Part shown: one piece after another, positions 5,106 through 59,501 of the stretch
Layout of the letters: each line of letters starts with the position of its first letter
How positions within the stretch are numbered: the first letter of the stretch is position 1
NCBI GenBank assembly: GCA_965205835.1
Contig: OZ242182.1
Location: 1,334,361 to 1,398,360, forward strand
Origin: Nitrospinales bacterium
GTDB taxonomy: Bacteria; Nitrospinota; Nitrospinia; Nitrospinales; VA-1
DNA: 64,000 nucleotides
Direction: 5' to 3'
Notes under the pieces: model-generated
What the model saw: only the letters and a program-made list of their open reading frames with translations
Databases searched by the model: none
Told to the model about the DNA's origin: nothing
Program-made: the position numbers and the translations under genes

Positions 5106-6659
5106 CTAGATGCTTAGTTTATCCAGTTTTACATGGCTCATGGTTCCGTCAAAAATAGCCCGGCTCACAAAAACCGCGGTGAACATGCTGGCCGTAATCC
5201 CTATGCATAAGGTAATGGCGAACCCTTTAATCGGACCTGTACCAAACTGAAAGAGAACCACCGCAGCAATGAAAGTGGTGATATTCGCATCAACAATGGT
5301 GCGAAAGGCTTTGGAAAAACCCGCTTCGACCGCGGCCCTCACCGTTTTGCCAAGTTTTAATTCCTCACGGATTCTCTCAAACACCAACACGTTGGCATCA
5401 ATAGCCATACCCACGGTGAGAATGATTCCCGCGATGCCCGGCAATGTCAGAGCCGCGCCAAAATAAGCCAGCGCACCTGCCAGAAGAACAATATTAAGGA
5501 ACAACGCCGTCACCGCTATAACACCAGACAACCTGTAATAAATAGCGATAAACACGACAACAACAAGGCCTCCATAAATAATAGATGTGATTCCCTTGTT
5601 AATGGAATCCTGGCCTAACGAGGGCCCTACTGTCCTGTTTTCGAGAATGACGACCGGTGCAGGAAGCGCGCCAGCTCTGAGAGCTATGGCGAGATCTCTT
5701 GCGTCTTCTGAAGTGAACTGGCCCGTGATCTGTGCCCGCCCGCCAGCAATCTCATCCTGAATAACCGGAGCCGAGTAAACATTGCCGTCCAAAACAATAG
5801 CTAAACGTTTTTTGATGTTCTCGCGTGTCACCTGCTGAAAAATCATGGCACCAACGCTATTGAAAGTCAAAGAAACATAAGGCTCATTAAAATCCGAATC
5901 GAATCGAATCTCTGCGCCCGTCAAAGTTTCACCCGTCAAAACCGTGCGTTTCTTTATAAGGAAAGGCTCTTTGGTGACCCCTCCTGTTTCCTTATTTTCT
6001 ACCCTTTGATACAAAATTTCAGATTTTTCGGGAACATTTCCTTGAAGTGCCTGTTCCAGACTGTTTTCTTCATCCAATAGTTTGAATTCAAGGCGGGCAG
6101 TTTTCCCAATCAGGCTGATGGCCCGTTCTGGGTCTTTCACGCCAGGCAACTGCACCAGAATCCGTTTTTCCCCCTGAGCCTGAATACTCGGCTCCGAAAC
6201 CCCAAATTGGTCTACTCTGTTGCGGATCGTTTCCAACCCTTGGCTCACCGCGTTTTGTTCAATCTGCTTAACCTGGTCCGCACTCATCCGATAGGCCAGC
6301 CCAAGTCTATCGGAATCCTCACTGACCAGACTGAGAAAAGGATACCCTTGCATAATCTCTTTCACTAGCGACAAATCCAGTTTATCCATCATCCACACAT
6401 TGACCCGCCGATCTGCAAAACTGGCTTTGACGCTGTCCACTTCCAAATCTTCTTTGGCAATACCCTGTTTGATATCATCCTCTAACCTTTCCAGACTGGC
6501 TTCGACCGCCTTTTCGACCTTGACTTCGAGCAAGAGGTGCATCCCTCCCTGCAGGTCAAGCCCCAGGGAAATTTTTTCCTTCAGGGGATAGGCAAGCCAC
6601 ACCGCGCCCAAAACTACGAAGAGTATCAAAGGAATTTTCCATTTAAGTTCTCTATGCAT
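5106..6659 (-). CDS. secD: Protein translocase subunit SecD
   Basis: 517 aa with LGLDLQGG, a large periplasmic domain, GPSLG and a C-terminal 5-TM bundle. Sits in a yajC-secD-secF arrangement. Confidence 0.93.
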   Translation of the reverse strand: MHRELKWKIPLILFVVLGAVWLAYPLKEKISLGLDLQGGMHLLLEVKVEKAVEASLERLEDDIKQGIAKEDLEVDSVKASFADRRVNVWMMDKLDLSLVKEIMQGYPFLSLVSEDSDRLGLAYRMSADQVKQIEQNAVSQGLETIRNRVDQFGVSEPSIQAQGEKRILVQLPGVKDPERAISLIGKTARLEFKLLDEENSLEQALQGNVPEKSEILYQRVENKETGGVTKEPFLIKKRTVLTGETLTGAEIRFDSDFNEPYVSLTFNSVGAMIFQQVTRENIKKRLAIVLDGNVYSAPVIQDEIAGGRAQITGQFTSEDARDLAIALRAGALPAPVVILENRTVGPSLGQDSINKGITSIIYGGLVVVVFIAIYYRLSGVIAVTALFLNIVLLAGALAYFGAALTLPGIAGIILTVGMAIDANVLVFERIREELKLGKTVRAAVEAGFSKAFRTIVDANITTFIAAVVLFQFGTGPIKGFAITLCIGITASMFTAVFVSRAIFDGTMSHVKLDKLSI

Positions 6660-11274: not shown

Positions 11275-11358
11275 AAACTCATACGAAGTTGAGAGACAAT
11301 CATAGATTATGTTAGATTACCCATAGTGTATAATTTTTTTGAACATTGAGGGACGAAT

Positions 11359-43289: not shown

Positions 43290-44230
43290 CTACACCTGTC
43301 TCTGTTACACAGAAGCAAACAGAGTTAAGTCTTTGTATGAGAGATTCTTCGCTATCGCTCAGAATGACAAGAAAACATGATAGGCCCGTAATCGATATCG
43401 GATTGAGAGATGCGGTCGCGGAGCCGGAAGAACAACATCTCGACCAGCTTTGATTTGTCATCCTCGAGGAGCCGAAGGCGATGTTTGTCATTCTGAGGAG
43501 CATTTGCGACGAAGAATCTCTCCCGGAATGACGGACAACAAGATTCTTCACTACGTTCAGAATGACAAGAAAACATGATAGGCCCGTAATCGATATCGGA
43601 TTGAGAGATGCGGTCGCGGAGCCGGAAAAACAACGTCCCGGTCAGCTTTGGTTTGTCATCCTTGAGGAGCCGAAGGCGACGAAGACGTGATATTTCTCCT
43701 TAGCCTTGCCCCGAAGGGGTAATCACGGGCTGTGCAAAGGTCTCCCTGTGAAGGGAGGGAATTGATTGTCCCCCTGACAAGGGGGATCAAGGGGGTTGGG
43801 GTTGTCATGCTGAGCTAGCAATATTTGACCTTTGCGTAAGTCGAAAAAAAAAACAGAAAAGCGAGATTCTTCACTACGTTCAGAATGACAAGAAACGATT
43901 GCTCGGAATGACAGGAACCGCTGGTTTGTCATCCTCGAGGAGCCGAAGGCGACGAAGGATCAGGGGTTATCTAAAGGTCTCCCTGTGAAGGGAGGGAATT
44001 GATTGTCCCCCTGACAAGGGGGATCAAGGGGGTTGGGGTTGTCATGCTGAGCTAGCAATATTTGACCTTTGCGTAAGTCGAAAAAAAAACAGAAAAGCGA
44101 GATTCTTCACTACGTTCAGAATGACAAGAGACGATTACTCGAAATGACAGGAAACGCCAGAGCGAGATTCTTCGCTATCGCTCAGAATGACAAGAAAACA
44201 TGATAGCTCCGTAAATTGGATCCACCCGAT
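43290..44230. repeat. Nested tandem/inverted repeat array
   Basis: One unit (agaatgacaagaaaacatgataggcccgtaatcgatatcggattgagagatgcggtcgcggagccgga) starts at 43361 and 43560, a 199-bp period, with a partial third copy at 44184. A second unit (aaaggtctccctgtgaagggagggaattgattgtccccctgacaaggggg...) starts at 43736 and 43973, a 237-bp period. There are also at least 10 short GTCATTCTGA...GAAGAATC / GTCATCCTCGAGGAGCCGAAGGCGACGAAG modules in both orientations. Confidence 0.9.
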
Positions 44231-51555: not shown

Positions 51556-51966
51556 ATGTATTTGGTTGATACCTCTGTTTGGATAGATTATTTCAACACC
51601 ACTCAAACACTTTCCAGTGGTTTTTTACGAAAAATACTCATATCAAAATCAACAATAGGCATAAACAATCACATTTATATGGAAGTGTTACAAGGCATCA
51701 GTAACAATAAAGTGCGTAATAATATAAAAGAAAGTTTAAATTTACATGCTTTCCATCCATTTATAAAAAACAAGGAAAGCTATGAAAACGCGGCATTTAT
51801 CTATAGCAGTTGCCGTGAAAAAGGCATCACCATTCGTTCAAGCACTGATTGCCTGGTCGCCCAATGTGCTATTGAGAATGATCTGATTCTGCTGCATAAC
51901 GATAAAGATTTTGTACGAATGGCTGGGGCTGTTCCAACCTTGCAACAGGAATATACAGGCGACTGA
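51556..51966 (+). CDS. vapC: PIN-domain toxin VapC
   Basis: MYLVDTSVWIDYF (first PIN acidic residue), E.LQG, SSTDCLVAQCAI, and LLHNDKDF (last acidic residue). 136 aa. Confidence 0.88.
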   Translation: MYLVDTSVWIDYFNTTQTLSSGFLRKILISKSTIGINNHIYMEVLQGISNNKVRNNIKESLNLHAFHPFIKNKESYENAAFIYSSCREKGITIRSSTDCLVAQCAIENDLILLHNDKDFVRMAGAVPTLQQEYTGD

Positions 51967-54900
51967 TGGAATTATTTGATAAAGCCTATAATCAAGAGGC
52001 ATATCTGGATTTTTTAGCGGGCAAATTTACTTTTTCAAAAAGTTTATTGCCCATCAACATAGACAATAACGAGGTCAAGAGTTTTAAGCGGCTAGGCGCA
52101 GTCGAAACCAAAGACGACAAAACACTGTCTGTTTTTGAGATTTATGTAAAACCCAATACCCAGTTACAAAGAAACCGCGTGCGGTTACGCAACCTGGTTG
52201 CCAAAGAAATTCAAACCACCGAAGATGGAGCTTTGGCCGTCTATGTTGATGAGGAAAACAATCAATGGCGGTTTAGTTTTATTGCCATAGAATGGAAACT
52301 TACCGATGAAGGCGTTAAAGAAGAGCAAACAGCCAGCAAACGATTCACCTATCTTTTAGGCGAAAACACCCAAACCAAAACAGTAAGGGACAGGTTTGCA
52401 ACGATTGATGAACAACCAACGCTCGAAGACCTGAGACAAGCCTTTGCCGTTGAGCCACTCAACAAGGAATTTTACGACAAGCTTTATAGATGGTATGAAA
52501 AAGCGCAAAAACAGGTTGTATTCCCCAATGATGAGCAAGCAGAAAACCACGCCCAAACCAGCCTGATCCGCCTGCTCACCCGCCTGCTGTTCATCTGGTT
52601 CATAAAAGAGAAAAAGCTGATCAACGCGGATTTGTTTGATAAAGACAAATTACAAAAACTGATTGATTACGACCAGTCCAGCAGTTTTTATAAAGCGATT
52701 CTGCAAAACCTGTTTTTCGCCACCCTCAACCGCCCGATAACTGAGCGTAGTTTTCGCACAACCACAAACGAAACAGCCAACAAGAACAACTATCTCGTTA
52801 CCAATATTTATCGCTATCAAAGTTATTTCACTAACTCCAGCAAAGACAACATTATCGCCTTATTTGAACAAACCCCGTTTTTGAATGGCGGCTTGTTTGA
52901 ATGCTTGGATCGCGAGGCAAGCGATGAAGAACAGCAGAACCATGATCGCGACCGCACCATTCGCCCCGCAAGAAGCGCCATTCGCGTTGATGGCTTTTCT
53001 GACCGCGCCGATAACCAACTAAAGTTTCCCAATGAGTTATTTTTTAGAGACGATGAACAGAATTATGGATTGATTAACCTGTTCAAACAGTATCAATTCA
53101 CCGTTGAAGAAAGCACCCCTTTGGATATAGAGGTCGCCCTTGACCCTGAGTTATTGGGCAAAGTGTTTGAAAACCTGCTTGCCAGCTATAACCCGGAAAC
53201 AGGACAACAAGCCCGCAAAGCCACCGGCAGTTTTTACACACCGCGGGAGATCGTCAGCTATATGGTGGATGAAAGTCTGAAACAATACTTCAAACAAAAC
53301 ACAGGTTTAGATGAAAGCGAAATAAATAACCTGTTTATCGAAAAAGAAAGCAGGTTGGATGACGAACGAATAAAAACCATTATTCATGCCATTGATAATC
53401 TGAAAATTCTTGATCCGGCGGTGGGTAGCGGTGCCTATCCGATGGGGATATTACAAAGACTGGTGTTTATCCTGGAAAAAATTGATCCAAAAAACACCCA
53501 CTTCAAACAGCAACAAATAAACAAGGCTGAACAAATTCAAGATGAAGCCAGCCGCGATAGCGCCATCGCGGCGATAGAACAGGTTTTTTCACGACAAAAT
53601 CAACATAACGCTTACGGCAAAAAACTCTATCTTATTGAAAACACCATTTATGGCGTGGATATTCAATCGGTCGCCATCCAGATATGCAAACTGCGGTTCT
53701 TTATCAGCCTGACCATTGAGCAAAGCCCAAATTGGGACAAAAACGAGGATTACAACATCAAAGCCCTGCCCAATCTGGAGACCAAATTTATTGTGGCAAA
53801 CAGCCTGCTGCCTTTGGGCGAGATGCCAAAGGACACAGGGTTATTTGATGAAAAAATAAAAGAGCTGCAAAAAGAATTGGCTGAAGTCAGGCATAGGCAT
53901 TTTAGTGCCAGGACCTTAACAACCAAACGTAAGTACAGAAAAGAGGACAAAACCCTACGCGAACAAATGCGGGATGAATTAACGATCGAATCTGGTATTA
54001 CCCCAGAAATAGAACAGAGTATGCAAAAAATAGTTAATTGGGATTTATACAATCAAAACACCATCGCCGACTGGTTTAATCCCGAATGGCAGTTTGGCGT
54101 TAAAAATAGCTTTGACATTGTCATTGGTAATCCGCCCTATATTCAATTGCAAAAAGACGGCGGGCGGTTGGGAAATCTTTATCAGAATCGAGATTTCAAG
54201 ACCTTTGCCAGATCGGGAGACATCTATCAACTGTTCTATGAACGGGGTATGGAATTGCTAACAGATGCGCAGGGCATACTGGCGTTTATCACCTCCAACA
54301 GTTGGATGCGTGCCAGATATGGCAAGAAACTGCGTGGATTTTTAAGCACGAAGCACAGTCCCCTGCGCCTGATAGACATGGGTCAAGATGCTTTTGAGGC
54401 GATTGTGGATACCAATATATTACTGGTCAGCACAGGCAGAGCGGAACAAGAATTCAAGGCAGTTGATATGGATTCTGTTTCCGAAAAACAGTTCCCGCCT
54501 GCCGAACGATACTGGTCGGAAATCCGGCCCGCTGGTGATATGGCCTGGAGCATATTGCCTCCTGTTGAGGAAAAGATAAAGTCCAGGATTGAACAGTTGG
54601 GCACCCCATTAAAAGACTGGGATATTCGTATTTATCGTGGAGTATTAACAGGCTTGAACGAAGCCTTTATTATTGATACCGCTAAAAGGGATGAGTTGGT
54701 TGCCGCCGACCCAAAATCTGCCGAGATTATTAAACCCATTTTACGCGGCAGGGATGTAGGGCGGTATGGGTATAAGTGGGCGGGAAAGTGGGTTATTTTA
54801 GCAAAATACCAGTCTAATCAATATTTAGAACAAGAATATCCGATTATTTATAATCATCTAAGTCAGTATGAAGAAAAATTAAAACAAAGAGGGCAATGTA

Positions 54901-55388
54901 GATACGGCGGCAAAGGCAATCAAGGGCAGCACCACTGGCTAGAATTAGATAACAATCCGGGTGATACCTATCTGGCAGAATTTGAAAAAGAAAAATTGAT
55001 TTGGATAGAACTGGTGGATAAGGGGCGTTTTGCACATGACGATAAGGAAATTTATTGCGAGGCAACCACTTTCATAATGACAGGAAGTAGTACAAAATAT
55101 CTATGCGCAATTCTAAATTCTAGTTTAGCGCATTGGTATCTTTCACAAGTTGCCCCTACATCAGGAATGGGCACGTTGCGCTGGAAAAAAATCTATATTG
55201 AGACAATACCGGTACCCTTATTGGATAAAGCCAGGCAACAGCCCTTTATAGATTTAGTCGATCAAATCCTCACCGCCAAAGAATCTGGCAAAGACACCAC
55301 CGCACTGGAAACCGAAATTGATAAGAAGGTCTATCAGCTCTACAACCTCACCGATGATGAAATCAAAATTATTGAGGCTAAAAAATGA
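51966..55388 (+). CDS. Large Eco57I/type IIG-like gamma-class N6-adenine DNA methyltransferase with a C-terminal TaqI-like target-recognition domain
   Basis: TGSFYTPREIVSYMV, then the AdoMet motif ILDPAVGSGAYP, then the catalytic IGNPPY (NPPY at 54129-54140). The C-terminal YRGVLTGLNEAFII is the TaqI_C-type TRD. The start ATG overlaps the vapC stop (TGATG). I see no clear PD-(D/E)xK motif in the N-terminal 200 aa or so. Confidence 0.88.
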   Translation: MELFDKAYNQEAYLDFLAGKFTFSKSLLPINIDNNEVKSFKRLGAVETKDDKTLSVFEIYVKPNTQLQRNRVRLRNLVAKEIQTTEDGALAVYVDEENNQWRFSFIAIEWKLTDEGVKEEQTASKRFTYLLGENTQTKTVRDRFATIDEQPTLEDLRQAFAVEPLNKEFYDKLYRWYEKAQKQVVFPNDEQAENHAQTSLIRLLTRLLFIWFIKEKKLINADLFDKDKLQKLIDYDQSSSFYKAILQNLFFATLNRPITERSFRTTTNETANKNNYLVTNIYRYQSYFTNSSKDNIIALFEQTPFLNGGLFECLDREASDEEQQNHDRDRTIRPARSAIRVDGFSDRADNQLKFPNELFFRDDEQNYGLINLFKQYQFTVEESTPLDIEVALDPELLGKVFENLLASYNPETGQQARKATGSFYTPREIVSYMVDESLKQYFKQNTGLDESEINNLFIEKESRLDDERIKTIIHAIDNLKILDPAVGSGAYPMGILQRLVFILEKIDPKNTHFKQQQINKAEQIQDEASRDSAIAAIEQVFSRQNQHNAYGKKLYLIENTIYGVDIQSVAIQICKLRFFISLTIEQSPNWDKNEDYNIKALPNLETKFIVANSLLPLGEMPKDTGLFDEKIKELQKELAEVRHRHFSARTLTTKRKYRKEDKTLREQMRDELTIESGITPEIEQSMQKIVNWDLYNQNTIADWFNPEWQFGVKNSFDIVIGNPPYIQLQKDGGRLGNLYQNRDFKTFARSGDIYQLFYERGMELLTDAQGILAFITSNSWMRARYGKKLRGFLSTKHSPLRLIDMGQDAFEAIVDTNILLVSTGRAEQEFKAVDMDSVSEKQFPPAERYWSEIRPAGDMAWSILPPVEEKIKSRIEQLGTPLKDWDIRIYRGVLTGLNEAFIIDTAKRDELVAADPKSAEIIKPILRGRDVGRYGYKWAGKWVILAKYQSNQYLEQEYPIIYNHLSQYEEKLKQRGQCRYGGKGNQGQHHWLELDNNPGDTYLAEFEKEKLIWIELVDKGRFAHDDKEIYCEATTFIMTGSSTKYLCAILNSSLAHWYLSQVAPTSGMGTLRWKKIYIETIPVPLLDKARQQPFIDLVDQILTAKESGKDTTALETEIDKKVYQLYNLTDDEIKIIEAKK

Positions 55389-57112
55389 TTACCAAAATCA
55401 GTATTAAACGCTTTAAGCAAATCTCTGATGAAACCATCGATCTTGAACCGGTGGTGGTATTGGTCGGACCTAATAATAGCGGCAAGACCAGTCTATTGCA
55501 GGCATTTTCGCTATTAGCAATAGCAATCAAGGTATGGGCTGAAAAACGCCTTGATAATCCAACCAAACAAAATCAACGCACGGGTATTGCGATTAATTTA
55601 AACGATATAAATATACCAGCCGCTGAGTTTAAAGAGCTATGGCAAAATACTAAAACCAGAGAAGGCAATACCACTAAAAAAGGTACAACGCCCATCAAGA
55701 TAGAAATCCATGCCAAAGGAAAGAGCTATGACCAAGAGCAAAAAACAAAGTCATGGGAAGTAGGTTTTGAATTTAGTTATCAGCGAGATAGTGTTATTTA
55801 CACCAAACTCATTGATGGCTATCAGTTTGAAACTATTTTAACGAGAGAAAGTATTGGTTTTTTGCCGTCTATATCTGGTCTTACTCTTAAAGAAGACAAA
55901 TTAGAGATGGGTTCTATTCTTCGCCGTATTAGTGAGGGGCAGACTGCTACGGTGCTGAGGAATATTTGTTACCATTTATATGAAAACAACCAACAAGGCT
56001 GGAATGGTCTCGTCAAAAGTATTAAGGATTTATTTGCCATTGAGTTAAACACGCCCAGGTATTATCCGAATAGTGGCTTGTTGGAACTCAACTATAATGA
56101 AACCACTAATAAAAAAATGTCGCTTTCCGCACTCGGTAGTGGTGCAAAACAGGCCATTTTACTATTTGCCTATCTAGGTGCGTTTAAAAATACTATTAGT
56201 TTACTTGATGAGCCTGATGCCCACCTTGAAGTCATTAAACAAGCTAATGTTTATTATAGTTTGAGTGATTTTGCTAAACGGAATAATAGCCAGCTAATTA
56301 TTGCCAGCCATTCAGAAAGCGTGCTTAATGCCGCTAAAGATGACTTAATAATTTCATCTATGTCGGGTAAGTTTGAAAAAGAATCCGCCAAGGATATTAA
56401 AGCTTTTTTAAAAGATTATCCTTATGAGCAATACTTGTTAGCCAAACAAAAGCCTTTTATCTTATATTATGAAGGCACTACTGATTTGGCTTTTATACGA
56501 GCATTTTGCAAAAAATTAGGCAAACAGGAATACCTTGAGCAATTAAATACAGCTATCTATCCTTTTTCGCTTGATGGTAATGATACGGGTAAAGCAAAAA
56601 AACATTTTTCTGCCCTAAAGAAATACCTGCCCAATCTAAAAGGTTTTGCTTTATTTGATAAACTGAACACGGATAATTTTAAAGACATTCCAGAAGGTCC
56701 AAAGCAGGACGAGCCTTTTGGAGACATTCCAAAAGATCTAAAAATGCGTCAATGGCAACGTAACGAAATAGAAAACTATATTCCTGTGCCCGGCACACTG
56801 ATGAATCATGTCAACGCACAACCTGGAGATTTGTTTTCTCAAACTTACCCATCAAGATTAGAGCGTATTCTAAAAGAGAACATACCTCCTGTTGCCTATG
56901 ATAATTTAAAAGATGACTTTTGGGTGGAGACTAAAATAAGCGATTTTCTCACCAAAATTTTTGAGCAATTTTTAGATGAAACCAGTCAGCCCAGAGGCAC
57001 AATGGATAAATCAAAATTTTATCTATTAGTTGATTATATTGACAAGAACCTGTTGGATGATGAGTTAAAAGAAACGCTTGATAACATATTTACTCATTTA
57101 GCAAAACCCTGA
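55385..57112 (+). CDS. ABC/AAA-type ATPase fused to a TOPRIM-like (DUF4435/OLD-like) C-terminal domain
   Basis: Walker A GPNNSGKTS (55466-55489), signature-like LSALGSGAKQ, Walker B LLDEPDAHLE, and an IIASHSE H-loop. The C-terminal half has ILYYEGTTD (EGxxD at 56471-56485), FALFDKL and RNEIENYI (56765-56779). The ATG overlaps the methyltransferase stop (ATGA). Confidence 0.8.
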   Translation: MITKISIKRFKQISDETIDLEPVVVLVGPNNSGKTSLLQAFSLLAIAIKVWAEKRLDNPTKQNQRTGIAINLNDINIPAAEFKELWQNTKTREGNTTKKGTTPIKIEIHAKGKSYDQEQKTKSWEVGFEFSYQRDSVIYTKLIDGYQFETILTRESIGFLPSISGLTLKEDKLEMGSILRRISEGQTATVLRNICYHLYENNQQGWNGLVKSIKDLFAIELNTPRYYPNSGLLELNYNETTNKKMSLSALGSGAKQAILLFAYLGAFKNTISLLDEPDAHLEVIKQANVYYSLSDFAKRNNSQLIIASHSESVLNAAKDDLIISSMSGKFEKESAKDIKAFLKDYPYEQYLLAKQKPFILYYEGTTDLAFIRAFCKKLGKQEYLEQLNTAIYPFSLDGNDTGKAKKHFSALKKYLPNLKGFALFDKLNTDNFKDIPEGPKQDEPFGDIPKDLKMRQWQRNEIENYIPVPGTLMNHVNAQPGDLFSQTYPSRLERILKENIPPVAYDNLKDDFWVETKISDFLTKIFEQFLDETSQPRGTMDKSKFYLLVDYIDKNLLDDELKETLDNIFTHLAKP

Positions 57113-57130
57113 AAATATCAGCTAACTGGT

Positions 57131-57176
57131 CTATAAACACTACAACCTCACCGCTGATGAAATCAAAATCATTGAA
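57131..57176 (+). pseudogene. Short relic of a methyltransferase 3' end (copy 2)
   Basis: ctataaacactacaacctcaccgctgatgaaatcaaaatcattga aligns with 55331-55375 (ctatcagctctacaacctcaccgatgatgaaatcaaaattattga). Confidence 0.75.
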
Positions 57177-57265
57177 ATCAAGGTCACTCCTGCACACAAA
57201 AAACAACGTCACTCCCGAAAAACACCGCCACTTCCAAAAAAAAAACCATCATTCCCGAAAAAAAC

Positions 57266-57626
57266 CGTCATTCCCGCGCAGGCGGGAATCCAGCGAATAA
57301 CACCATGAGCCACAAACAACCTGCTGTTTATATTTTGGCAAGCCAACCTAATGGTACGTTATACACTGGCGTTACTTCTGATTTAATCAAACGTGTCTGG
57401 GAACATAAAAATCATTTGGTCAAAGGATTCAGTCAAAAATATAACGTAGACCTTTTGGTCTATTTCGAATTGCATGCAGATATGTATGTTGCAATTACGC
57501 GTGAAAAGCAAATCAAGAAATGGAAGCGGGCATGGAAGCTGAGGTTGATTGAAGATAAGAATCCACATTGGAGGGATTTATATAAAGATTTGGTTTGACT
57601 GGATTCCCGCCTGCGCGGGAATGACG
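57266..57626 (+). mobile_element. GIY-YIG gene bracketed by perfect 28-bp inverted repeats (candidate mini mobile/selfish unit)
   Basis: 57266-57293 (cgtcattcccgcgcaggcgggaatccag) is the exact reverse complement of 57599-57626. Each arm contains its own hairpin (tcccgc/gcggga). Degenerate direct copies of the arm lie at 57207-57226 and 57247-57266, with a partial copy at about 57636-57648. Confidence 0.7.
57305..57598 (+). CDS. GIY-YIG nuclease family protein (small UPF0213/COG2827-like)
   Basis: PAVYILAS..NGTLYTGVTSDLIKRVWEHK......F...Y.V..LVYFE......AI.REKQIKKW.R..K..LI is the canonical small GIY-YIG layout. 97 aa. Confidence 0.88.
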   Translation: MSHKQPAVYILASQPNGTLYTGVTSDLIKRVWEHKNHLVKGFSQKYNVDLLVYFELHADMYVAITREKQIKKWKRAWKLRLIEDKNPHWRDLYKDLV

Positions 57627-58061
57627 AATAGGAGAAGCGGGAATGACGTTCCAGACGAGAGCGAGGTCAATCGTTTATTGATATTAACGGCAGTAGTAAC
57701 TCGCCAAATTTTGGATAACGCTAATGACAAATATAAAGCAATAGAGGGAAAAGAATGTGGTGAATTTTGGTACAATTATCCTGATGACGATGGTATACCT
57801 TTAGATATTCGAAAGGCTTGCAATATGATTATTCATGCTACAGATATTGTGATGAAGACGGGCGAGTATTATTATCGTGAAGAAGGAGATGAAAGCGGCC
57901 CCGCACAACAAGATAAGGGGTATTTTCAAGGTAAAATAATGATAACAGGACAAAATAAACGCCGGGGCAGAGGTAAAAGCAGTGAGCGTGCTGAATTGGA
58001 TTTAACAGAATTTACACAACATTGTGTCGAACTTAGCGGTAGAATCGAGGAAGGAGGGTAG
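57621..58061 (+). CDS. Hypothetical protein, start uncertain (possibly N-terminally truncated by the GIY-YIG unit)
   Basis: The ORF is open from 57549, but its 5' part overlaps the GIY-YIG CDS and the right inverted repeat. Possible starts are ATG 57621 (inside the repeat) or TTG 57678 (GAGGT 10 nt upstream). I recognise no family. Confidence 0.35.
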   Translation: MTNRRSGNDVPDESEVNRLLILTAVVTRQILDNANDKYKAIEGKECGEFWYNYPDDDGIPLDIRKACNMIIHATDIVMKTGEYYYREEGDESGPAQQDKGYFQGKIMITGQNKRRGRGKSSERAELDLTEFTQHCVELSGRIEEGG

Positions 58062-58065
58062 GACC

Positions 58066-58284
58066 ATGACAGCATACAGAGACACTTACAAATACCATAT
58101 CAAACGAGGCAATAAAATTTTGCACACTGGCATTACTAATGATTTACGGCGCCGTGAGCACGAACACCAACAAAACTATGGTGGTGCTGTCCATATCAAG
58201 CAGGTTGGCAATCGCACCACCCGCGAAGCCGCTTTACAATGGGAAGACGAACAACGACAGAAGGGAAAACCGGTAGGTCCCTGA
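58066..58284 (+). CDS. Small GIY-YIG-like protein
   Basis: ATG at 58066 with an AAGGAGGG RBS (58051-58058). YKYHIKRGNKILHTGITNDLRRREHEH...ALQWEDEQR follows the GIY...YIG...R..EH...E pattern. 72 aa. Confidence 0.6.
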   Translation: MTAYRDTYKYHIKRGNKILHTGITNDLRRREHEHQQNYGGAVHIKQVGNRTTREAALQWEDEQRQKGKPVGP

Positions 58285-58449: not shown

Positions 58450-58587
58450 TGCCAGAGACTATCCATCCCCATTGCCAAAAAATCTAGCAAAGACACCACC
58501 GCCATGGAAGCCGAAATTGATAAGAGGGTCTATCAGTTCTACAACCTCACCGCTGATGAAATAAATATTATCGAAGATAAAAAATGA
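58450..58587 (+). pseudogene. Relic of a second methyltransferase gene 3' end (copy 3)
   Basis: It translates as ...IAKKSSKDTTAMEAEIDKRVYQFYNLTADEINIIEDKK*, against the intact gene's LTAKESGKDTTALETEIDKKVYQLYNLTDDEIKIIEAKK*. It ends in the same AAAAAATGA stop/start overlap with the next gene. Confidence 0.85.
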
Positions 58588-59501
58588 ATCGCGAAATGCC
58601 GCCCATGAACATTTCAGACAAGCCAAAATTCTATCGTCAACGATTTTTACTGTCCTTGTTGCGTTTTATCAATACAGAAATAACCAGAACGGAGCTACAC
58701 AAGCACAGCTTTTTATTTTCGCGACAAACTCCTATGGGTTACGATCTCGTTCCTTATCAATATGGCTGTCATTCTTTTCAACTGGACAAGGATTTGTCGG
58801 ACTTATCAGAGCAAGGTTTTATAGGCCCTGGTAAGAAGATAAAACTTAAAACAGACAATCCAATAACCTGGCTAAAAACCAAAGATAGCGATAGCCTATC
58901 CGCGTATCCCAAAGAACATAAAACGTTAAGAGGAGATGATTTGATTGGCTTTACTTATAAAAATTATCCTTATTATGCGATTAATAGCGAAATTATCGAT
59001 AAAATTTGCTCAGACCAAGAGAGAAGAAAAATTGAAAATGAAAAACGACAGCTAAAGAAAAAAAATTCTGCCGCTGTTTATACGCTCGGTTACGAGGGAA
59101 TCAGTTTGGAAACTTATATTAACAAGCTTATCCAGAACAACATAAAGTTATTATGCGATGTCAGAAAAAATCCTTTCAGTCGCAAATTTGGTTTTAGTTA
59201 TAAAACTTTAAGTAATATTTTGCAAAAAGTCGGTATTAACTATGTGCATATTCCACAGCTGGGTGTTGAATCCAATAAAAGAAAAAACTTAAATCATAAA
59301 GAGGACTATAAAAAGTTATTTGGTGAATATAAAGCTACATTGTCTGCCAGAGAAGAAGCACCGGAGAAGGTGCTGGACTTGCAAAAAAGACATCGAAGAA
59401 TTGCCCCGATTTGTTTTGAAAAACACCACCATGAGTGCCATCGCCATTGCGTCAGTGATTATCTTTCTGATAATTATAAAATTCAAACCATTCATTTATA
59501 A
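58584..59501 (+). CDS. DUF488 domain protein with an N-terminal extension of about 160 aa (possible winged-helix/Panacea-like domain)
   Basis: The C-terminal half, VYTLGYEG.S...........I..L.DVRKNPFSRKFGF....L...L...GI.Y.HIP.LG...........C.E.....CHR, is the DUF488 signature. The N-terminal L.K..FL........Y.LVPYQYG.HS..L..DL..L...G.I pattern is only tentatively assigned. Confidence 0.75.
   Translation: MNREMPPMNISDKPKFYRQRFLLSLLRFINTEITRTELHKHSFLFSRQTPMGYDLVPYQYGCHSFQLDKDLSDLSEQGFIGPGKKIKLKTDNPITWLKTKDSDSLSAYPKEHKTLRGDDLIGFTYKNYPYYAINSEIIDKICSDQERRKIENEKRQLKKKNSAAVYTLGYEGISLETYINKLIQNNIKLLCDVRKNPFSRKFGFSYKTLSNILQKVGINYVHIPQLGVESNKRKNLNHKEDYKKLFGEYKATLSAREEAPEKVLDLQKRHRRIAPICFEKHHHECHRHCVSDYLSDNYKIQTIHL

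Follow-up and report, generated by a model that had tools for sequence, protein, structure and literature searches.

A probable ssnA-type endonuclease gene with its cognate hairpin repeats in a defence island of a Nitrospinales bacterium

The stretch analyzed here, a 64,000-nucleotide segment of contig OZ242182.1 from a Nitrospinales bacterium (the window; positions are counted from its first letter), carries a defence island at 47.9-62.5 kb, a setting already recognized in an initial annotation. The island encodes a PLD-SNF2 helicase, a PIN toxin, a type IIG restriction-modification (RM) enzyme (51966-55388), an AAA_15 ATPase, DUF488/PDC-M19A, and a HEC-01A-like ATPase with DUF4276, and between the AAA_15 and DUF488/PDC-M19A genes lies a small gene for a 97-amino-acid, single-domain GIY-YIG protein (57305..57598, + strand) that is bracketed by two hairpin-forming repeats. 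We propose, with a probability of about 88%, that this is an ssnA-type locus, consisting of a gene for an Ssn-family (cd10448) GIY-YIG endonuclease and two inverted copies of its cognate hairpin, the Neisseria Transformation Sequence (NTS). Modules of this kind were characterized experimentally only in 2025, and our analysis leaves the published picture of Ssn and the NTS standing. The locus matters because it places a canonical NTS-ssnA-NTS unit in a lineage remote from Neisseria, where the unit follows a type IIG RM gene in a defence island and has few or no dispersed NTS copies nearby, which bears on what Ssn does outside naturally competent pathogens. It also gives leads on how such units spread and reshape their surroundings, namely half-site arrays of variable length, a second class of repeats with another Ssn subclade, and a copy carried as cargo by an element with terminal inverted repeats (TIRs).

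The gene and its two repeat arms

The initial annotation had described a perfect 28-nucleotide inverted repeat around the GIY-YIG open reading frame (ORF), and this holds in every detail of position. The left NTS hairpin (CGTCATTCCCGCGCAGGCGGGAATCCAG; 57266..57293, + strand) is separated from the ATG by 11 nucleotides (57294-57304), and the right NTS hairpin (57599..57626, - strand), its exact reverse complement, begins on the base right after the TGA of ORF 57305-57598. Two 28-mer matches did not arise by chance in any of 100 shuffles, and a search of the window allowing up to three mismatches found no further copy beyond the two arms. The arms had also been described as stem-loops, and they do fold, with a stem two pairs longer than had been written: as single-stranded DNA (ssDNA), each arm forms an 8-bp stem (ATTCCCGC/GCGGGAAT) closed by a 4-nucleotide loop (-8.9 kcal/mol, z -2.7 to -4.7). 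A permissive Rfam scan of 40-64 kb matched no family.

The NTS was defined as CGTCATTCCCGCGMAVGCGGGAATCYRG by Chenal et al. (2025, Nat Commun 16:2388; PMC11893778), who found NTS-like repeats (SRM) beside homologues of N. meningitidis NMV_0044 (ssnA) across bacteria, with at least one repeat copy at 71% of the ssnA homologues, copies on both sides at 42%, and NTS-ssnA-NTS as the usual gene layout of the family. SsnA is a 94-amino-acid single-domain GIY-YIG protein of CDD family cd10448 that binds the NTS as ssDNA only, with nanomolar affinity, and cleaves a few nucleotides away on its 5′ side; it accepts neither the reverse strand nor duplex DNA nor RNA as substrate and does not even bind the RNA version, and the changes Y6A, Y17A, and E64A abolish cutting (PMC11893778). 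The biochemistry covers the Nm, Ne, Nw, and Wp homologues (Neisseria and Wolbachia), and recognition is set by the sequence of the stem and not by its shape alone, with a specificity that varies among homologues (PMC11893778). The same paper reports hundreds of solo NTS copies away from an ssn gene in other genomes, and raises the layout resembling an insertion sequence (IS), together with a domestication scenario, as a hypothesis.

The 28-mer of the window agrees with the NTS consensus at every position. When the published NTS and SRM patterns were run across the 64 kb, the two arms were the sole matches, and simulated windows gave a mean of 0.16. Read against the consensus, the cleavable strand would be the + strand at the left arm and the - strand at the right arm. 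The dRS3 core ATTCCC-N8-GGGAAT is matched twice in the window, at 57270-57289 and 57603-57622, so that both arms hold the core known from Neisseria dRS3/NIME elements; unlike those elements, the window has no array of RS units (50-150 bp, each bounded by dRS3), our search for them having found just the two arms and half sites.

The protein itself gives a Pfam GIY-YIG match at residues 7-79 (E 7e-14) and has no second domain, and its catalytic residues are Y9, Y20, R30, H34, E67, and N86. By BLASTP it is 63% identical (E 2e-47) to the 94-amino-acid N. gonorrhoeae orthologue (locus L049 of our scan), where the threshold for Ssn homology in PMC11893778 is E < 1e-10; this comparison protein is the gonococcal one and not N. 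meningitidis SsnA, and its orthology is taken from equal length and from the Y6/Y17/E64 numbering. Y6, Y17, and E64 of SsnA align to Y9, Y20, and E67 of the window protein, positions that do not vary among 23 aligned homologues. Its ORF is the only one between the arms, where no HUH Y1 transposase is encoded. There is no family-specific NCBIfam model, and no PADLOC model matched the GIY-YIG protein, the truncated ORF next to it, or the 72-amino-acid ORF that follows. A sequence search of the PDB returned WD40-repeat proteins only, with no significant domain stretch, and we treated these matches as compositional false positives; by sequence, then, the PDB holds no solved Ssn relative.

Given a 28-mer identical to the NTS consensus, the 63% identity of the protein with its gonococcal counterpart, and the conserved catalytic residues, we read the locus as an ssnA gene with cognate NTS arms. 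Our analysis shows membership in the family at the level of sequence, and it also shows an NTS match without deviation, covariation of the hairpin, the layout, and the synteny, the last three being described below. From the characterized homologues we infer the specificity of catalysis and the biological role in the host. The initial suggestion that the protein recognizes the flanking repeats agrees with the published biochemistry of homologues (PMC11893778) and with the family's sequence features, all of which are present in the window, and such recognition is what we would expect. The likeness to Ssn of Neisseria thus extends to size (about 94-97 amino acids in a single domain), catalytic residues, the 28-mer, and the inverted NTS-ssnA-NTS arrangement.

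By homology to the Neisseria and Wolbachia enzymes, the window protein would ignore duplex DNA and RNA. The NTS would fold into its 8-bp hairpin in ssDNA, such as incoming transforming or conjugating DNA, ssDNA phage, and replication or repair intermediates, and the enzyme would read the stem sequence along with the unpaired flanks (GTC 5′ of the stem, C 3′ of it). Hydrolysis would take place a few nucleotides 5′ of the NTS and on the CGTCA...CCAG strand only. On the + strand the predicted cut, as extrapolated from the homologues, would fall just left of 57266, in the A-run near 57260-57265, and on the - strand just right of 57626, near 57627-57633 in + coordinates, which would put both cuts at the outer edges of the unit and on opposite strands. 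A likely role would be the restriction or trimming of NTS-bearing ssDNA, by which recombination would be modulated, as suggested by the transformation data from Neisseria.

Several points weigh against this reading. The enzymology comes from other members of the family, and the specificity that varies among homologues may differ here too. No obvious ribosome-binding site or promoter is present in the 11-nucleotide leader. Complete NTS copies number two in the 64 kb, and none lies outside the ssn units of the two other metagenomic contigs that encode an identical protein (L001 and L002). Since so few copies are found nearby, there is no sign of the wide NTS use seen in Neisseria, and the role is not simply transferable; our locus differs from the Neisseria ones in its uncultured host, in lacking the NTS expansion of pathogenic Neisseria, and in following immediately on a type IIG RM gene inside a defence island. 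Finally, Ssn is not in PADLOC and homologues also occupy housekeeping contexts, and a defence role is therefore not established.

The hairpin and its gene across bacteria

Database proteins at or above about 70% identity number more than 8,000. A scan of one genome per species gave 80 loci, spanning Methylomonas, Nitrosomonadales, Planctomycetes, Chloroflexi, Cyanobacteria, Pseudomonas, Endozoicomonas, CPR bacteria, and N. gonorrhoeae, and 57 homologous genes were used to compare flanks. In a motif-free test, the 150 nucleotides upstream of each gene were aligned by Smith-Waterman with the reverse-complemented downstream flank, with shuffles as control. An inverted repeat stood far above the shuffles in about 40 of the 57 genes, and it was always of the form CGTCA-stem-loop-stem-CCAG. 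The SRM pattern was present within 150 nucleotides upstream of 34 genes, downstream of 41, and on both sides of 29, so that the repeat is strongly enriched beside these GIY-YIG genes and does not behave as a ubiquitous element that happens to lie here. Across homologues, the favoured orientation of the arms places CGTCA distal to the gene, and the modal gaps are 11-15 nucleotides before the ATG and 0-2 nucleotides after the stop codon; the window shows the modal arrangement.

The stem also covaries. Among 104 distinct 28-nucleotide arms, 98.4% of cells were paired and 87 double-sided changes were counted, a level that 0 of 500 shuffles reached, and slid controls fell to 18-53% paired. A close example is given by two metagenomic contigs (L003 and L004) whose protein is 86% identical to that of the window, and in which both arms read CCTGC/GCAGG in place of CCCGC/GCGGG. 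The relatives thus carry the repeats along with the gene, with compensatory changes, and conservation across phyla extends to CGTCA and CCAG, the unpaired flanks. We conclude that selection acts on the hairpin.

The published degenerate SRM pattern misses the CCTGC/GCAGG arms of L003/L004 at 5893-5920, 5975-6002, and 6307-6334. As this arm variant escapes the pattern, the published association percentages are probably underestimates.

Among contigs predicted to be viral or prophage (IMG/VR, L215-L294), at least 120 carry the canonical NTS core, with a GC content from 0.41 to 0.72, and an Ssn-like ORF was also encoded in 5 of the 80 NTS-bearing viral contigs that were fetched. A second lineage with ssn in an RM locus is Leptolyngbya sp. 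PCC 6406, where the homologue (L205, 8001-8285) is enclosed in a type I RM operon, with hsdR on one side and hsdM on the other. At another locus (L209), the homologue lies between trpC and an aldehyde dehydrogenase gene. The defence context of ssn is recurrent and not universal.

Half-site arrays, unit edges, and mobility

The unit occupies the same place in the window, L001, L002, and L003/L004, downstream of a VapBC and type IIG RM block, with surrounding cassettes that differ, and L002 carries two ssn units in tandem. The block common to L001 and L002 corresponds to 57128-57654 of the window (95-96% identity); it extends past the arms and includes the half-site arrays described below and a remnant of the RM gene. 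The ssn unit is a long-standing resident directly behind the type IIG RM gene.

The 3′ end of the RM gene (its last 50-120 nucleotides, ..VYQLYNLTxDEIKIIE..) occurs three times in the window, at 55266-55391 (the real end of the gene), 57128-57175, and 58477-58590. The second of these, a remnant on the + strand (57128..57175, ..YNLTADEIKIIE..) delimited by BLAST boundaries and alignment of the junction copies, lies directly 5′ of the half-site array. Such copies stand before each downstream cassette, and where one directly precedes a cassette gene its stop codon overlaps the next ATG (ATGA), likewise in L001-L004. The pattern suggests that cassettes have been exchanged through recombination at the 3′ end of the RM gene. 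A two-gene cassette (188 and about 72 amino acids) is found at 57657-58061 plus 58066-58284 in the window and at 9755-10533 in L004; its second ORF (58066-58284) has sub-threshold GIY-YIG similarity (Pfam E 0.014; Ssn hidden Markov model [HMM] E 0.011).

Upstream of the left arm, the degenerate copies between A-runs that had been noticed initially form a tandem array of NTS 5′ half sites with a period of 19-21 nucleotides (57183..57265, + strand), detected by Tandem Repeats Finder (TRF), a repeat search, and a k-mer list. The k-mer list gave the half sites GTCACTCCTGC (57183), CGTCACTCCCG (57207), CGCCACTTCC (57226), and CATCATTCCCG (57247), all on the + strand, and TRF called the 19-21-nucleotide array at 57199-57276. 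On the other side, the partial copy reported after the right arm is an additional NTS 5′ half site that follows a 10-nucleotide spacer (57637..57648, - strand; CGTCATTCCCGC on the - strand, GCGGGAATGACG on the + strand) and forms the outer end of the shared unit. In relatives, half-site arrays are found at 6311-6590 of L001 and 6317-6640 of L004, and the copy number differs between near-identical contigs, from 2.7 in L003 to 16.7 in L004. Half-NTS tandem arrays with a period of 18-32 nucleotides also accompany ssn genes in several phyla (L010, L018, L023, L032, L063, L068, and L083). The main text of PMC11893778 makes no mention of tandem arrays (the word "tandem" occurs 0 times), and the outward extension of the arms by variable half-site arrays sets the window unit apart from the Ssn loci described there.

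The neighbouring ORF had been thought to have lost its start, and comparison with relatives bears this out. It is a 5′-truncated remnant (57657..58061, + strand) of a 188-amino-acid gene that is intact in L004 (BLAST to L004 9904-10574, and protein comparison); the window copy lacks the first 50 residues, leaving the 3′ two-thirds. Homology begins at about 57656, a breakpoint that abuts the last half site and the homology boundary of the unit (57648-57654). The missing 5′ part was sought on the opposite side of the ssn unit and is not there, and no target-site duplication was found around the unit. A simple insertion into the neighbouring gene was rejected, as the 5′ part of that gene does not lie across the unit. 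Because of this and the lack of a target duplication, the edge is a deletion or recombination joint rather than a clean insertion. Another junction was seen in L003 at about 11281-11293, where a solo half NTS (CGTCATTCCTGCG) stands between a degenerate RM 3′ remnant and a GTP cyclohydrolase II-like ORF, to which it is joined straight and which appears to be start-less.

These arrays and junctions could be taken further. The NTS-ssn unit might be an active agent of gene turnover in the island, the arrays and the truncated-gene junctions (57648/57656 in the window and about 11290 in L003) being scars of single-strand breaks that Ssn initiates and that are mended by slippage or illegitimate joining. 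We consider this unlikely; that NTS sites serve as hotspots of breakage and repair is speculative, and the arrays and junctions would allow it. Speculative, too, is the related idea that Ssn is an ssDNA-restriction arm complementing the adjacent type IIG RM enzyme, which acts on double-stranded DNA (dsDNA).

A further possibility is a compact IS with hairpin ends, comparable to IS200/IS605 or REP/RAYT, that has the GIY-YIG protein as its transposase and spreads itself and solo hairpins. The comparison has substance, since in those systems too a small gene sits between hairpin repeats that its enzyme recognizes in ssDNA, with solo repeats elsewhere. The layout resembles that of an IS, a point likewise noted in PMC11893778, and protein identities of 60-78% across distant phyla suggest horizontal spread. 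Some metagenome-assembled genomes (MAGs) hold several copies (L018/L020 and L056/L058), the tandem pair of L002 is a further case, solo SRM copies are numerous in some loci, and half sites stand at the truncated-gene junctions of the window (57648/57656) and L003 (about 11290).

Nevertheless, we consider this explanation improbable. GIY-YIG enzymes are hydrolases, and no strand-transfer or covalent-intermediate chemistry is known among them. Excision of the IS200/IS605 type requires that the two ends lie on the same strand and that an HUH tyrosine enzyme forms a covalent intermediate. In the window, by contrast, the arms are inverted, with the cleavable strand + on the left and - on the right, so the recognized strand differs between the ends. 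Self-transposition is mechanistically unlikely because the inverted arms put the cuts on opposite strands and the GIY-YIG enzyme is hydrolytic. The evidence from the locus points the same way: the window offers no target duplication and no defined target, the shared block 57128-57654 does not stop at the arms, and the unit is syntenic in four related contigs. No evidence of its transposition was found in this lineage (the window and L001-L004). What the initial annotation called a mobile unit therefore keeps its IS-like layout, and its mobility is unproven.

Movement seen elsewhere concerns another element. In a deltaproteobacterial MAG, two paralogous copies (L056 9899-10413 and L058 9899-10386), 91% identical, share exactly 488-515 bp. 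The segment ends in perfect 17-bp TIRs (CATAAGCGCTAACTTAA) and is flanked by direct duplications of 11-12 bp, GGGTTGGrAGGG in one copy and CCCCCCAGCCC in the other. This element of about 500 bp has no transposase gene and holds SRM-ssn-SRM inside as cargo. The signature is one of transposition of the outer element, with the mobility of ssn borrowed there, which counts against self-transposition of the inner unit. The L056/L058 element resembles mobile insertion cassettes and MITE-like cargo elements, of which MIC231 of the IS4 family is reportedly an example; the window unit shows none of these features. In a Thermodesulfobacteriota MAG (chromosome OZ245366.1), two identical ssn genes (L018 and L020) lie 124 kb apart in long NIME-like mosaics built of units of about 110-135 bp, in which two NTS variants and half sites alternate, and the attempt to define a mobile unit from them failed, as both copies are buried in repetitive mosaic arrays. 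For the ssnA-type locus of the window, the flanking hairpins may stem from selfish or hitchhiking behaviour in the past, and not from self-mobility in the present.

The hairpins could also act mainly at the RNA level or in transcription, as terminators, mRNA stabilizers, or a translational operator, and not as DNA sites of the enzyme. They do lie tight against start and stop codons in most homologues. In addition, when the - strand is read (57289-57270), a T-run comes after the left NTS, and the site scores as intrinsic-terminator-like and could halt antisense transcription coming from the right. However, no T-run is present 3′ of the right arm on the coding strand, and the CGTCA and CCAG flanks, which are unpaired and which a terminator does not need, are conserved across phyla. 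SsnA binds the ssDNA version with nanomolar affinity and the RNA version not at all, and the hundreds of solo copies reported elsewhere are not beside an ssn gene (PMC11893778). We therefore regard an RNA-level role as their main function as very improbable.

The weakest explanation, a free-standing GIY-YIG homing endonuclease gene whose product cuts duplex target in alleles lacking the gene, so that it is copied in by repair, is hardly credible: it has in its favour the catalytic domain superfamily shared with I-TevI and the Seg proteins, a position between variable genes of the island, and a sub-threshold NCBIfam match to a group I intron endonuclease (E 7.5e-4; 19.6 bits where the cut-off is 56; residues 7-41 only), but I-TevI-type enzymes need a linker and a C-terminal DNA-binding domain (a point also made in PMC11893778) and the 97-amino-acid protein has neither, the characterized homologues act on ssDNA only and are inactive on dsDNA (PMC11893778), no intron or intein context was found at the locus, and conserved hairpin flanks are not a trait of homing endonuclease genes. 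The term "homing-type" used for the nuclease in the initial annotation was accordingly dropped.

The repeat array at 43.3-44.2 kb

The initial annotation had also linked the arms to a repeat array at 43.3-44.2 kb, which is not part of the island and has a BatA/VWA gene on one side and a TPR/FGE-sulfatase gene on the other. The array (43340-44215) is a mosaic of repeated modules with two recurrent short units, YTTGTCATTCTGArCG..GAAGAATC and TTTGTCATCCTyGAGGAGCCGAAGGCGAyG, and it also holds three NTS-like half sites. Its units match neither the published NTS nor the SRM pattern, and they fold no better than shuffles. No second ssn gene was found near the array with an Ssn HMM on the six-frame translation, which returned the gene at 57.3 kb only, plus the marginal hit at ORF 58066-58284. 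In view of the failed patterns and the lack of folding, the array units were rejected as NTS copies, and the claim of a shared repeat survives in the weaker form of a related class, retained after a metagenome scan. Since stem sequence determines recognition (PMC11893778), the array units are probably not a substrate of the window enzyme.

The metagenome scan, run with the pattern GTCATTCTGARCG-N(2-6)-GAAGAAT, returned 80 loci. An Ssn-like ORF lay within 23-427 nucleotides in 6 of them (L097, L108, L109, L133, L151, and L157), and in L133, L157, L109, and L151 the array-type unit flanks the Ssn-like gene in the same inverted layout as the NTS arms. The Ssn-like proteins beside these units form a more distant subclade (REKxIKGW..), and the array is probably a sister repeat class, cognate to another Ssn.

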